Shown in pieces: positions 3,801-51,200 of a stretch of 64,000 nt of DNA. How positions within the stretch are numbered: the stretch's first letter is position 1; each line of letters starts with the position of its first letter. Both the position numbers and the translations under genes were made by a program. Source of the stretch: Raillietiella orientalis. Taxonomy: Eukaryota. The stretch is from the NCBI GenBank assembly GCA_036172245.1, contig JAYWIR010000016.1, positions 558,001-622,000 of the forward strand. The letters run 5' to 3'. The notes under the pieces are model-generated. The model made no database searches and was not told the DNA's origin. It was given only the letters and a program-made list of their open reading frames with translations.

Positions 3801-4449
3801 CTCCCTGAGAATGTATGCCGATAGTCACTCGGGCTTGGGTAAAGGACTTTTCGGGTTTCGATCCCCATTGAGGGGCATACCCCAAATGTCGCCGCTCGGG
3901 AGGAAAGGAACGGAGTTCCTGACAGCAAGATTGCGAAGCTCGCATACCAAACTTTTTGCGAGGAGCTCTTGGAATGCGCCGATGTAACAACTGGACGTCC
4001 GCTCGTCCCGGCGCAGTAAGCAATTTCGCAGCGACACGAACTCTGAACTGATGATTTCGTTCCGTGTTGTTCCCTATTTTTCAAGAGAAAAATTACTAAG
4101 ACACAGAAACAAATTGAATGCCTAATCCAATTGGTCGATCTCCCTGTCCAAAACACGACTTCATCAGCACGAAACAGTTTGTCCTTCCTCATCTCTCTCC
4201 CTCCTTTTTCCTTTTTTTTCGTCCTGATGCGAATTTCCGTTTTCGCCAGATCGCAGAAGATGAAGAGTCGTCAGGAGGAGGAGGAGATTGCATTCTGCAT
4301 CGCCTTGCAGAACCTTGTCACGGTCTGGAGTGGGGAGAGAGTTATACGTAGCCATCACTCCGTGCAGCCCGGGCGACGGGGTTCCCATTTATTTCGAACT
4401 TTTGTCCTTCATCCCCGAGAACTTTGCCCTGGAAAAATTCTCATCGAAC

Positions 4450-5319
4450 GGAGCTTCGGAAAATGACGCCGATGACGGTTTCTCGTTCGTGGGTCTCACA
4501 CCCCAGGAGACGGTGTCAGCATCCGTTCGCCGTATCGATCACGGCAAGTCAACACGCATGCGGTGTCCATGTGCGTACGCGTGTCCCGTGCGTTCAGTGT
4601 TTGGCACATGCGACCTTGGGAAGCGACTGAGGAGCTCTGATACGCCCAGAGACCAAGATCACCAGTCTGTTGAATAGCCATTACAGGATCCATGGAGACA
4701 TCCGTGAGAAGTGCATTCTTTCCCTTCCGTCCGAAATACTCGTCCTCGGTGGACACTGACACGACTCATTCATCGAGAAAAACCCCGTGGCCAGACCACG
4801 GTGATGTTTTTTTTGGAAATTCCTGCGAGCTTTGGAAGGCTTCAGAGAGCTTCCACAAACCGGGGTGATGGAACTATAGGAAAAGGACGGTTCACAGCTT
4901 CACAAGAACCGAAAAAGAAGATAAATATCAGGAGATCGGCTTACTGCTAAGGAAGAAAGGATTTCAGGATGAGTTCAAGGCTGTGGTAGAGGTCAAGGCT
5001 CAACAGGAACCTGGTGATCCCCGTAACGATAGGGTGATTCGTGAGCTAGGTATCCTGGAGCCATGCGCTGAGAAAATGAGGCGCCTGATGGTGTCCTCCT
5101 CTTGCATGCAGCACAGTAGGGATATCTAATGGACGCACCGTCCAGGGCATCCTCCGGACGACGCCAACAAGCGGCAAGCCCACGGAATGGCTGCAGAAGA
5201 AGGGAGTCTTCCATCAGAGTCGTGAAGAATGAGGAAGCCGCTAGAGAAAGAGAGGAAGATGAGGCAAAGCCATCCAATTTTATTTATTCGTATAGAATGT
5301 AAGAAATGTACGAAACAAC
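4450..5319 (+). mobile_element. Utopia-like (U2-targeting RLE) retrotransposon, 3' remnant
   Basis: Ordered motifs: RIDHGKSTRMRCPCAY..VFGTC (CCHC), RP/EILVL, VMFFLEIPASFGR, KEDKYQEIGLLLRKKGF, GSTGTW/DPRNDRVIRELGI..KMRRLMVSS..SRDI. A short 3' UTR follows and abuts U2 sequence at 5320. Confidence 0.8.
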
Positions 5320-5437
5320 TCCGTTCTTATGAGCTTCATGTCTGATACGCAGCCTGCCTGGCGACCAGCTTATTAAACTACCTTTTGGAAGCGGACGGGA
5401 CGCTTGGAGCTTGCTTCCTCTCCTATCGTGGGACGGC
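5320..5437 (+). pseudogene. 5'-truncated U2 snRNA pseudogene (from about nt 39 through stem-loop III)
   Basis: tccgttcttatgagcttcatgtctgatacg...ttaaactaccttttggaagcggacgggacgcttggagcttgcttcc..tcgtggga is colinear with metazoan U2 (TCTGTTCTTATCAG..TCTGATA...TTAAAC..TTTTTGGA..GGAGCTTGCTCC). The Sm site is mutated. Confidence 0.85.
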
Positions 5438-5523
5438 ATCTCTTCACGTGGGAGGATCCTTCCTAGCGCATCTCGGAAATGCCAACGCAGATCTCACTCA
5501 ACTAGGCAATGCGGCAACTCCCC

Positions 5524-6112
5524 CCATCTCCTCAGCCTGTCTTCTCTCTTCCAGCCGTCCCCATGACGCGGCTGTGATCGAGAGTGGCAGCCCCGTCACG
5601 AGCTGGGGCCGCCTTCGGCCACGGACGGCGTCCCGTCCCATCGTTCCCAACGCGCGTCCCGGCAGCATCGAGCACGTCTCAGCTTCCTCTTCCCACGAGG
5701 CCCGTCCCCCTCTTCCGAATTTCCTGGCACTTGGCCGTTCGACGCATCCCACCGATCCCAGGGATCGCACGAGGAGCGTTCTTCAGTGAGGCGGGAGCTC
5801 CACCGCAGGCGAAGCGGAGAGGCGATCCTCGACAGCTGGTCACCTTCCCCATTCAGTGCTGAGCCTTCACCGAGGGACACGCGACCGTGCAGTACGGCCG
5901 CGTCGGCTTCCTCCCGGAAGAATGGCTTCATCTTCGAGTCCGGCGTAGGCTGGCCGGAGGCCGCCAACTCCGGATGCCTGAGGGCAGGCGGGTGTCCTGA
6001 CCTGGACCAGCGTCTCGGCGCGTCTTCCGGGGATCATGATTTTGCTGTTGGTGTGTGGCGGTCCTGTGGATTCTTGCCGCGGACGAGCGGTGCCACCCGT
6101 GGTGGGAGATGC
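5524..6112 (-). repeat. 589-bp near-identical direct duplicate of 16496-17084 (RLE element post-RT segment)
   Basis: Sequence identity with 16496-17084; the ORF track shows identical ORFs at both sites. Confidence 0.95.
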
Positions 6113-6679
6113 CCCGCAAGGGTATTCGGGAACATTCGACTGGCTCTGCATTTATCGTGGCAGGTCATTTCTCTTAGCGATTCGGCGGCTAGCCTCTCGT
6201 AAAAATATCGAGTACTTGAACAGAGATTTCAGCTTCCTGACCCAGTTTCTAGTCTGATTTCGACCTCACTCGCATCGAGAGATGGCCAGAATGCCGCCAC
6301 TCAGGAAGGAGGGAAGCGAACTTCTGACAGCACAATCACGAAACTCCCATACAGGATTTCTACCGAAGAGCTCTTGGAATTCCTCGTGAGGTTCAAAAGC
6401 ATCCGGCATGGGAAGATTGCAAATCCCTCTTTCTTTTGCTAGAACGAGAACGGATATCGGGACTTTTACGCGAAGAATAAATAACTTAGGAGGAAACCCA
6501 GAGCTTCATCCTTGTCATCCAACCTTTTCTCCAGGTTCGGACGGTATGCGAGGATGCCTCTGTGGGAACCAGGAGATCAAAGATTTGGTTATTTATGCTC
6601 CTTCGCTGTTTCATCTCTAATTTGAATGTTTTCGAATCCTGCGAAGTTTTCCTCCTCAAAGCAGAAGGTGAATGAAGTT

Positions 6680-7300
6680 ATAGGGACACTTCGGTTGGCT
6701 GACACCGTCCAGCAGTCGCGGTTGTGGCTTTATTCAGTCCTTCGACTATTGCATCATGCCTAGGTGTGTATAGGGGTGAGTGCCTCATGCAGTGGTGTGA
6801 GACAATGTCTCATTCCAAGAAGCACCACGTCGGCCTGAGCGATGTTACTCCTCTTCTTGCAACTCCTCGTATGGGAAGCAGATCTAGCCCGGCAGCGTGA
6901 CATGCCTTGCTGAAGAGACTCTACGAGAAGTGGCATTGAAAAAGATACGGACACCACCCTCGGACAAAGACCTTGGCAGATTCGCATCTTTAGTCACACG
7001 TGGAAAATTTGCAAGGCCAAGTGATGAATCAAGAGCATCTGCACGGGAAGAAGACAAGAGCTTCAGAAGCGAACTAGGAGTTTGATGGGAGCACGCCAAG
7101 GATTCGAAGCTTCGAAGAAGAACTGGTGAGTTCCATGATTGCCGTCGCCTACTGCAGTCTAACACACTGTGCGCCGAAGAAGACAACAACGACTCGGATC
7201 GCTTGGAACCAAAGCAGGAAGGAAAAAAAACTTCCTCACGAGTAGTTCTTCTGCATGAATTCATAGCAGCAGTGCTTTGAAACCTCCCTGCTCCTCTCGA
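6680..7300 (+). mobile_element. Decayed RLE non-LTR retrotransposon, 3' part
   Basis: LRLADTVQQSRL (~TRFADW..ARL), CLMQWCETMSH (CCHC), HALLKRL (~RHNAI..RL) and GSLGT (~G.LG.W). Confidence 0.55.
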
Positions 7301-16495: not shown

Positions 16496-17400
16496 CCATC
16501 TCCTCAGCCTGTCTTCTCTCTTCCAGCCGTCCCCATGACGCGGCTGTGATCGAGAGTGGCAGCCCCGTCACGAGCTGGGGCCGCCTTCGGCCACGGACGG
16601 CGTCCCGTCCCATCGTTCCCAACGCGCGTCCCGGCAGCATCGAGCACGTCTCAGCTTCCTCTTCCCACGAGGCCCGTCCCCCTCTTCCGAATTTCCTGGC
16701 ACTTGGCCGTTCGACGCATCCCACCGATCCCAGGGATCGCACGAGGAGCGTTCTTCAGTGAGGCGGGAGCTCCACCGCAGGCGAAGCGGAGAGGCGATCC
16801 TCGACAGCTGGTCACCTTCCCCATTCAGTGCTGAGCCTTCACCGAGGGACACGCGACCGTGCAGTACGGCCGCGTCGGCTTCCTCCCGGAAGAATGGCTT
16901 CATCTTCGAGTCCGGCGTAGGCTGGCCGGAGGCCGCCAACTCCGGATGCCTGAGGGCAGGCGGGTGTCCTGACCTGGACCAGCGTCTCGGCGCGTCTTCC
17001 GGGGATCATGATTTTGCTGTTGGTGTGTGGCGGTCCTGTGGATTCTTGCCGCGGACGAGCGGTGCCACCCGTGGTGGAAGATGCGGGTCAAATGGTTCTC
17101 AGTGGGCGAAGCGGCGCAGGTTTCGAAGACGCAGTCGGGCATACCGATGTGTACCTGCGTCCCGTGCTGAGTGATGACGGAAGAAAGCTGGAAGATTCCC
17201 AGCATCTCCGAAACATCAGGTTCATCTCAAATCGAGGCCTGGTCCACACACCCGAACGGGCTGCTTCAGGTAAGGACCGATACCCTTGGAAGCGATACTG
17301 ATCTTCGGAAGGCACCCGTGATTGTATTTGCGTGATCCCGGGTCACGTGGCTCAGTGTTTCCCATAGCGCTCACCTCCCAATCCTTACCCGCGCGAGGCG
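16496..17400 (-). mobile_element. Decayed RLE element, RT end and post-RT region
   Basis: EDQYRFQG (~Y.YLG), PSSLSTGRR (~SLLAPWQK), PACPQAS (~LP.RAS), EEADAAVLHG and RRARCCRDARWERW (~W.RAR.A..RL..W). Confidence 0.5.
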
Positions 17401-17860: not shown

Positions 17861-17872
17861 ACCCCTGCACCA

Positions 17873-24329: not shown

Positions 24330-25300
24330 ATCCTGTCATCCCGCTGACAGCTGGTCATCCTGGACGGTGACCTACAATACGTTCCCAGAGCATGCCTGGA
24401 TGCTGGAGACACGCCCATCCTTTGCTTCAGGTGTTCTGCCGGAACGCGGGAGCTCCCGAATTCTCTGAGCACCTCGTCGCTTCTCGGGCTTTTGCCGAAG
24501 GCGAAAGTGTGGCACCTCATGCGCCCGGGGAGCGGCACTTTGAAGCAAAAGTCACGACGGTGCTGCTGAGCTTCCGTAGGTCCGACTGGTTCTTTCCAGA
24601 TGGACGAACAGCAAACCCTTTGCGGAGCCCACGAAAAAAGTCGGAAGCTGCGTCGATCGTTGCGGAGCACGCCGACACGGAATGCTCTTTTGCGAGTGTT
24701 CCCAGAAAATCTGGTGTGGAGGCGCTTGTACTGAGGTCTTTCCGTTGCCTCCACGGTCGCCTGTGGGACAAATGCAAGGTGCAGGTCAAAACCCGCCGCA
24801 CACTCCTTCCCACTATTGCGCATCCCTCACTACGGAGTACTTGTGCCCAGAACTTTGAGGCTGCTAAACTGACCAGCTTCCAGCCGCCGCGCTGCATCCT
24901 TTCCGGACTCCTGAACGGGAACAAGGATGCGAACTTCCACGCACATTCCCTGTTCATCGCCTCTGTTTTCCTTGGAAAGCCTCCCGGAAGCGGGGGAAAC
25001 CACGTCTCTCATCTGTTGGTTCCTGGAAATTCGACGCAGGAAGTTTTCAGGAGTTCGGATCCAGTGGGAGACAGGCACGCGGATCCGTTTCCGAAGACCC
25101 CCCATCCCTGGTTTGACGTCAGTGACGCCGACCTCTGCGACTGCTCCATCTCTCGAATAGGTTAATTCCGTTCGTAGTGCGCCATTCTCTTCGGTTCCCA
25201 CATGGACCGGGTGGCGCGCGCTTTGCAGAATTCTTCGAATTCGTTGCGAGTGGCAAGAGCTCATATCGCGGCTCTCCAGGCCTGTTCGGAGGGAACAGGG
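24330..25300 (-). mobile_element. Utopia/NeSL-like RLE element, 3' remnant
   Basis: EQGMCVEV (~DQGK), GGWKLVSLAA (~DWRFIHRAR), GCAIVGRSVRRVLTCTLHLSHRRPWRQR (CCHC+RH), ATIDAASDF, SPRSDEVLREFGSSR..KQRMGVS. Confidence 0.7.
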
Positions 25301-49949: not shown

Positions 49950-51200
49950 TCTGGGCGAGCAGCATCGGAACATCGCTGCGAGGGTGTCGTGACTTCCTTT
50001 GCGGGCCTCCTCGTGGACCAGAGAAGAAGGAACGGCGAATAAATGAAGATAGGCTCGCTCCGACGCTGGAAGCACTTTCTCATCCTGATTCTGAGGAGCG
50101 ACGGAAAGCTCGGCAGATTTCCCATCCAATAAAGGGAAGAGAATAGCAACCGGAATCAGCGAAGAGGAAGATGCCTGGCGACTAGGTCCTCTGGCGGCTC
50201 CGGCAACGGACGCGGAAGGCAAGAGACGCGAATATGAAATTCCGGTTTGAAGCAGCAGAGAACAAGAGTCGCGTCTTTCTGGAGCCCAGCTCCGAGAACC
50301 GTCCCGGGAAAGTAGTTGAGGATGACGGTGACGATGGAACTGCTTAGCTTTCTGCCTGAGGGGAATCTCTTTGCTTGGGGATGGTAGTTTCCTGGATAGC
50401 TGTGCGGCCAAGAGGTGATGCCATGGGAGGAAAGGCTCCGGGAGGAGCTCGTGCGGATCAAATTCCAGCGCTGCTAGGCATCCCGCTGTCTCAGTTTGTC
50501 GATGAGGTTTCCCGAGCCTGCGGTGGCGCGGTGGCAGCAGGGAGTGCGCGATTGCATGGTGCCTCCACCCAGACTCTCCTGAGGGACTTCGAGTCCCAAG
50601 ATGCCTCGGCTGGCAATTGAGGTTTTCTCCCTCGCTTATCTTTGGCTCCTTCCCCTTTCTTTAGCCGCGTGGGATCCCGTTCTCTCACTGAAGTGCCGGA
50701 ATCCACTGGCAGAATGCGTCCTTTTCCATCCTGTGATCCACTGCCACCGCAACCGTTGCCACGAGGAAGAGAAATTCTAATAAATCCCCATGAACTCCGA
50801 TGGCCTGATCAGAGGGAAGCAGCCTACACCCAGGGTTGTTTCTCTGCAAGCTGAGGGACGCGTCGCCACCGTCGATGACGGTCTTGGAGAAAGAGAGGAA
50901 TTGGAAAAAAAGCAAATACCATTGACGGAGTTGTCAGCTCTTCATCTTGTCCCTCATCCTTCATCTTGTCCCGAGGGGGAAAGGAGCGTCAGAATCGGTA
51001 TGGGCACTTGCCCTGGAACCTCTAGGATCCTGGGGCCCACGGAACGACGCAGCACTGAGAGGCCAGGGTACTGGCAAGACGTCAGGAAGAAGACGATGCA
51101 TCCCAACATTCAGGGTTTTTTCGACCACCGCTGAGGGCATCGGAAGAATCATCCGGAGCTGTGACGGGAGTATCTCAGAAGGGAACCACCCTCGTTGACC
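49950..51200 (+). mobile_element. Decayed Utopia/NeSL-like element, 3' part
   Basis: DRLAPTLEAL, KCR..HPVIHC, GRVATVDD..EREELEKK, ALALEPLGSWGPRNDAALRGQG and VTGVSQ. Confidence 0.65.

Follow-up and report, generated by a model that had tools for sequence, protein, structure and literature searches.

A decayed Utopia 3' end joined to a U2 snRNA fragment in Raillietiella orientalis, one of dozens of element/U2-tail copies in the genome

Introduction

Utopia elements are non-LTR retrotransposons of the NeSL clade that encode a restriction-like endonuclease (RLE) and occupy U2 snRNA genes (Kojima and Jurka 2015, PMC4640811); nicking of U2 followed by target-primed reverse transcription is established for the family (PMC4640811). 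The junction is printed for aphid, beetle, tick, centipede and fly Utopia in S1 Fig of that paper, where the aphid and beetle copies exhibit 20-base U2 tails followed by unrelated sequence. Disrupted U2 genes of Phytophthora are also reported there without an upstream 5' fragment, and a 20-bp duplication is given for reptile, not arthropod, families (PMC4640811). Many further NeSL/Utopia elements have been mined by Fell et al. 2025 (as cited in PMC13580325).

Other described systems share single features with the locus analysed here. Keno elements (Tx1 clade) use the same U2 insertion point but carry an APE endonuclease, whereas the present element encodes an RLE. Tailless snRNA retropseudogenes and snRNA/L1 chimeras (PMC5322556, PMC4494074) likewise comprise U2 5' fragments with flanking repeats and pieces of snRNA joined to truncated retroelements; the cases in those two papers come from therian mammals and lizards, where L1 is the enzyme, whereas here the host is arthropod-like and the RLE element targets U2 itself. 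R5, LIN9, LIN24 and LIN26 (NeSL clade, flatworm 28S rDNA) and R2 insert into 28S, as does a sister lineage described below; LIN9, LIN24 and LIN26 are drawn against the antisense strand in S6 Fig of PMC4640811, and LIN24 and LIN26 join about 75 bases further along, whereas our sister lineage replaces 28–29 bases.

Here we analyse a locus within a 64-kb stretch of the Raillietiella orientalis genome (the window, to which positions refer unless a contig is named). It resembles Utopia as described in the sources cited in the order RT, CCHC finger and RLE of its fuller relatives, in an A-rich end joined to TCTGTTCTTATCAG, and in the genomic setting: an arthropod-type host, co-existing families, some copies outside U2, and more disrupted than intact U2. 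It differs from those descriptions in that U2 tails of variable length are spread over at least 38 contigs, some units exhibit target duplications, and no intact U2 was found in this assembly. Among the papers listed in our literature searches we found none on carried U2 tails or on the 28S site of the sister lineage, although Repbase and Fell et al. 2025 could hold either.

Results

The element remnant in the window

The feature spans 4896–5433 on the forward strand, as delimited by a DNA profile and a U2 profile, and consists of a decayed Utopia 3' end and a U2 piece. The decayed end of the Utopia ORF (RLE C-terminus, KEDKY onward; 4896–5225, forward) was traced by reading frames, tblastn and DNA and protein profiles; it contains a premature stop at 5127–5129, and the original ORF stop probably lies at 5223–5225, as judged from reading frame 3903 (both forward). 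The initial annotation had read the peptide DPRNDRVIRELGI..MRRLMVS..SRDI as an RLE C-terminus. This reading was borne out: the peptide is in frame at 4869–5126, in the order EKEDKY...GDPRNDRVIRELGI...SRDI, stop and then WTHRPGHPPDDA; the RLE ORF of a better-preserved copy (L054) matches the window by tblastn with E 3e-18, and the window peptide scores 85.9 bits on a protein profile built from genome copies. The PD..D catalytic residues are missing, the remnant being the KEDKY stretch and the part downstream of it. The copy, 74% identical to its nearest relative, is dead: it is 5'-truncated and carries an in-frame stop.

At the DNA level, a profile built from 23 element 3' ends matches 4896–5318 with 255.7 bits, and the matched stretch runs directly up to the U2 piece; junction comparison and the DNA profile place the 3' UTR with its decayed A-rich (AATAAA-type) end at 5226–5319 (forward). 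The element ends at 5318/5319, in agreement with the element end proposed earlier at 5319. The proposed start at 4450 had to be abandoned, as homology begins about 445 bases later, at 4896: 4300–4895 gave no match to the element DNA profile and nothing above 0 bits on the protein profile, and a genome search with 4250–4900 returned only the self-match. Because homology starts at 4896 and nothing upstream matches, the feature is defined as 4896–5433, and the stretch 4450–4895 formerly assigned to the element (no strand) has no detectable homology with the element, U2 or the U2 upstream region. A start at 4806, produced by tblastn extension, is unsupported by either the DNA or the protein profile.

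Further decayed pieces of the same family lie at 6681–7028 and 50815–51062, the former with adjoining segments in opposite orientation around 6895, resembling a 5' inversion. The window also holds an inverted repeat (1020–1324/2496–2800; 305 bases, 99.7% identity) around 1.2 kb, and others at 17868–18505/45328–45957 and 25852–26725/62324–63188.

The U2 piece and its junction

U2 sequence begins at 5320 with TCCGTTCTTAT, directly after the element end at 5318/5319, as had been claimed. The fragment occupies 5320–5433 (forward; 114 bases) and corresponds to host nt about 40–152, counted from host U2 pieces, with stem-loops IIa and IIb, the Sm site and stem-loop III. Searching with the Rfam U2 model gave a divided answer: a match to U2 is present, at 5282–5470, but it scores 30.2 bits (E 4e-4) against a gathering score of 46, and at the gathering threshold there is no match anywhere in the 64 kb. 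Within this sub-threshold match, good alignment begins only at model position ~39, equivalent to window 5320. A profile built from 21 U2 tails of the host, in comparison, gives 5320–5433 a score of 91.4 bits (E 4e-30), and 94 of 113 columns are identical to the best-preserved U2 tail. U2 homology ends at about 5433, short of stem-loop IV, and a profile of the U2 3' flank found no match after the piece. A continuation past 5433 into stem-loop IV and the shared 3' flank, considered by eye and from a forced global cmscan alignment to 5470, was rejected on the host-profile search.

The element meets U2 at TCTGTTCTT (nt 39 when counted as in human U2), which agrees with the arthropod Utopia junctions in S1 Fig of PMC4640811 and sustains the claim of a canonical insertion point. 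The absence of the U2 5' end upstream of the junction also stands: U2 nt 1–39 were not found there, the sole head-like U2 match in the 64 kb being a decayed 5' fragment at 24480–24509 (forward). The shared U2 upstream region gave no profile match within the window, and no target duplication is detectable at the copy. A functional U2 gene would combine a promoter, nt 1–39 (U6-pairing and branch-site regions), an intact Sm site, stem-loop IV and a 3' box; the locus does not show this set. With neither U2 head nor upstream region at the locus, the junction is no proof that an element inserted into a U2 gene here. The initial annotation had also named results that would speak against it, namely no U2 match, U2 homology continuing upstream or a better fit to a non-Utopia clade; we looked for all three and encountered none.

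Assignment to Utopia rather than Keno or R2

The window copy is, in our judgement, almost certainly Utopia joined to U2. By homology the peptide belongs to the C-terminus of an RLE, which excludes Keno, and it groups in a Utopia-like clade, an indirect indication of clade membership. The better-preserved L054 exhibits the full motif set of CCHC finger and RLE (PD..D/ExK) after the RT, and its RLE ORF matches solved R2 proteins over their C-terminal region with E 3e-14. The N-terminal zinc fingers and RT are absent from the truncated window copy; they occur in pieces in its clade-mates L157/L211, L189/L210 and L215, all with stops or frameshifts. Across the 210 Mb and 491 contigs searched, the RLE query gave 150 scored matches among 2041 candidates.

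A quick maximum-likelihood tree of 77 rows (LG+G4, SH-aLRT support only; no R2 rows and no named Utopia proteins) was calculated from which genome fragments shorter than 330 residues were excluded, save the window and four others. The window row, which fills 13% of the columns, falls inside a 19-row clade of genome copies (SH-aLRT 100) in which U2-flanked and non-U2 copies are mixed. This clade is part of a 44-row clade (SH-aLRT 100), together with a second genome clade (9 rows, 100) and 16 spider, tick, aphid, beetle and unnamed proteins; DNA similarity gave the same relatives for the window copy as the tree. In database searches the closest proteins were those of spiders, ticks, aphids, a beetle, Ladona, Drosophila teissieri and nematodes, some of them bearing a Ulp1 protease; as far as sequence similarity goes, these neighbours would fit the Utopia/NeSL host list and the NeSL domain given in PMC4640811.

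In case of Keno, the 3' junction would be identical (PMC4640811) and L1/Tx1-like elements do exist in this genome, but the peptide aligns to RLE domains, including those of solved R2 proteins via the better-preserved relative, and no APE domain was found in the long ORFs of the related sister lineage (clade B). RLE coding and tree placement refute this identity, to which we give a negligible probability. The earlier preference for Utopia over Keno is therefore upheld by a coding remnant of RLE rather than APE type, by clustering with U2-flanked RLE elements and by a junction like that of arthropod Utopia. Nor does the window copy fit R2 (Myb before the RT, sense insertion into 28S), as it is joined to U2; one clade B ORF aligned with R2 structures only over the RT and, weakly, over a zinc finger.

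U2 heads and promoter-bearing loci

The U2 head has 163 exact matches in the genome against 0 for the control. All 20 sampled heads (L120–L139) end at nt 33–37, none of them is followed by sense-strand element sequence within the next 1.5 kb, and a flanking repeat was found at 11 of the 20, compared with 41 of 380 control pairs. These 5' fragments with flanking repeats resemble the tailless retropseudogenes of mammals and lizards.

A GC-rich upstream stretch of ~860 bases, likely the U2 promoter, is common to only 4 of the 40 heads examined: two on contig C30 (2717800–2731900), one on C389 and one on C482. A genome-wide exact motif of this region recovered the same 4 loci. A 280-base profile gave no additional locus in 1.05 Mb of sequence, the window included; being built from these 4 related loci, it might overlook a second type of U2 promoter that has diverged. 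All four keep U2 nt 1–33 to 1–37 at the 5' junction and none continues into an intact U2: element-derived sequence follows in three, and a TG-rich, element-5'-UTR-like stretch in C482. Downstream of the head at C30:2726586 lies clade B element sequence in opposite orientation. Thus, the genome does contain genuine U2 genes that are interrupted, and with nothing of the kind in the window its copy is not recognisably one of them.

Three patterns and Rfam retrieved no intact U2 from the assembly; since only 47 of 5640 candidates were scored with Rfam and the assembly may lack arrays that collapsed, this does not equal absence from the organism. U1, by contrast, gave 37 matches above the Rfam cut-off. 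Inspection by eye of 7 U1 upstream regions revealed no promoter motif common to U1 and U2 loci; a TGCAAAG-type motif, a putative 3' box, is common to the U1 and U2 3' flanks. Host U2 carries an extra A, as does the fly U2 printed in PMC4640811, and one host gene found its best matches in insects, at about 40% identity; on these two grounds we take the host to be arthropod-like.

U2 nt 40–59 precede a TG-rich stretch at L157/L211 (C19), L189/L210 (C9), L147 and L180, and in L157 and L189 this stretch leads into the zinc fingers and RT of a full-length-type element. Such 5' ends resemble the reptile 20-bp duplication (PMC4640811) and suggest a 20-base duplication in some families (L157, L189 type). 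A uniform 20-bp duplication across the family is not supported, as C482 joins at about nt 37.

U2 tails are dispersed and variable in length

The genome search proposed earlier for element/U2 junctions returned many copies: a 16-mer of the U2 tail start (at most 1 mismatch) has 69 matches on 38 contigs, compared with 7 for the reversed control, and the window copy is one of dozens of element/U2-tail copies. Junctions were counted over 64 distinct tail hits, with 20 further U2-tail loci outside the count. RLE coding lies within 1.2 kb upstream in 29 of these, with no RLE coding hit in the other 35; at least 5 A occur in the last 8 element bases at 56; and U2 nt 31–39 are kept directly before the junction in 2. 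The tails range from ~20 bases to beyond the end of U2. Tails stopped before profile position 150 in 30 of 61 cases, and the missing part resumed downstream in 2 of those 30 (mostly ~1.5 kb searched). Dispersed, variable tails together with the bracketing duplications described below are suggestive of tails that were carried with the element. Convergent pairs of U2 tails with a common spacer of ~100–130 bases occur at several loci (L037, L038, L039, L044, L152, L206).

Direct repeats bracket units of element and U2 tail

Twelve heads, promoter-less or promoter-bearing and chosen by eye from 40, sit on truncated elements, with element homology 2–20 bases past the head in nine and short 3'-UTR pieces in three. 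Among units with a defined 3' end, a direct repeat of 14–16 bases brackets 3 of 8, compared with 2 of 56 mismatched control pairs: L143 and L208 consist of U2 head, element end and U2 tail, with the repeat overlapping the tail end in L208, and L173 consists of head and element. The head-less L142 exhibits a repeat (14 of 16 bases) that brackets the element and a 71-base U2 tail and overlaps the Sm site. In L143 a 5' piece that we take to be U6 lies after the U2 tail and inside the repeat, and a similar, presumably U6-derived 5' fragment lies beside a U2 piece at L136. The target duplications around element and U2 tail in L142, L143 and L208 imply that tails can travel on RNA, and the bracketed units and variable tails fit reverse transcription of read-through RNA primed in the tail.

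Insertion into an older U2 retrocopy fits the units of head, element and tail equally well, and accounts for L143 and L208 too. Applied to the window, this would mean that a promoter-less retrocopy of U2, reaching from nt 1 to about 152, was already present when Utopia inserted precisely at its target within it. U2 retrocopies are numerous, as the exact heads and their flanking repeats indicate; yet every sampled head ends before the insertion point, head-to-tail U2 sequence gave 0 matches (the junction itself has 3 exact matches, all lacking stem I), and the window has no head, so that we consider this origin improbable for the window copy.

Origin of the window copy

Given that no U2 front end or promoter lies nearby, the window copy is likely a stray that brought its U2 piece along rather than the marker of a U2 gene at this locus. 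We moderately favour an origin by reverse transcription of a read-through RNA, with the U2 piece travelling with the element. In such a process Utopia would nick U2 genes before TCTGTTCTT and insert by target-primed reverse transcription; a Utopia copy inside a real U2 gene would be the source, its transcripts crossing the element end into the remaining U2 and 3' flank. These read-through RNAs would then be primed at variable points within the U2 tail, via short homology, at non-U2 sites, and at the window copy synthesis would have halted early, after ~420 bases of element. For this copy itself we infer the carried tail with the same moderate confidence. Against it, head-less truncated copies exhibit a repeat in 1 of 12 compared with 4 of 132 control pairs, which is no enrichment, and the window is among the 11 without.

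The contrary reading, that Utopia entered a genuine U2 gene here, whose head and promoter were deleted or lost and whose U2 3' end was replaced by other DNA, draws on the canonical junction, on the existence of real interrupted U2 genes in the genome and on the published reading of the Phytophthora genes that lack an upstream 5' fragment (PMC4640811). The window copy is moreover old, at 74% identity to its nearest relative, so that any U2 head and promoter once present could have been lost through decay or deletion, and the region is rearranged, as 5381–6184 was recently duplicated. Against this, the 4 promoter-bearing loci have all kept nt 1–33 to 1–37, the window has neither head nor promoter, and promoter loss would be demanded at dozens of dispersed U2 genes; we regard a genuine gene at this locus as rather unlikely, though worth keeping in view.

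The same duplication bears on a further alternative, in which the junction was copied at the DNA level, as an orphon or segmental duplication from a disrupted U2 array. The duplicate of 5381–6184 lies about 100 kb before the window (L007) at 98.9% identity, and the convergent U2-tail pairs recur as a unit at several loci. The duplicate begins inside the U2 tail, however, and does not include the junction; there is no array spacer beside the window copy, and its nearest junction relative is only 74% identical. We consider copying as DNA very improbable, and the reading that we prefer for the window copy is a U2 tail carried on RNA. Within the window, 5524–6112 is also duplicated at 16496–17084 (99.8%).

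A sister lineage in 28S rDNA

Clade B RLE elements lie antisense in 28S rDNA at L170 (C81:70800–80700), L171 (C83:276300–286200) and L226–L230, the last five being junctions to clade B RLE ends. A 28S 18-mer has 9 genomic matches, 7 after an element end and 2 intact. L170 and L171 share an identical 5' junction, and in comparison with the intact L231, 28–29 bases are replaced; we take the R2 site to lie within these bases. L170 comprises two elements in series, a 1249-aa ORF without RLE followed by a 924-aa RT-RLE frame. One U2-flanked copy with promoter belongs to clade B (L070), its pairing with L170a resting on 70 columns. Searching metagenomes for the 28S junction gave 2 matches, both element-free rDNA fragments. 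Three clade B copies (L172, L176, L177) end in AATAAA directly followed by GGCA in a repeated context, two of them with an L1/Tx1-like ORF upstream; this context is a possible third target, perhaps the end of another element.

Discussion

The locus preserves a fossil element whose class has been described before and is already known from this phylum. Taken together, the data can be read jointly as follows, a picture that we hold to be an even bet: U2 genes would act as launch pads for Utopia, and transcripts driven by the U2 promoter or reading through the element (head of nt 1–33 to 37, variable tail) would be retrocopied genome-wide, most junctions, including that in the window, being transduced tails; the same radiation would have given rise to the sister lineage that sits on the 28S antisense strand and deletes the R2 site.

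The value of the locus is as one data point on how RLE target choice varies among close relatives within one genome. If U2 tails ride on RNA, then junction counts are no proof of strict U2 targeting, and if U2 genes are indeed launch pads, counts of 'disrupted U2 genes' overstate site specificity. In the latter case the genome would also provide a natural series of targets (U2, U2-like, another repeat, 28S) for studies of RLE retargeting, and the antisense 28S sister lineage would be a tractable example of how a target is switched within the enzyme class behind RNA-only gene insertion.
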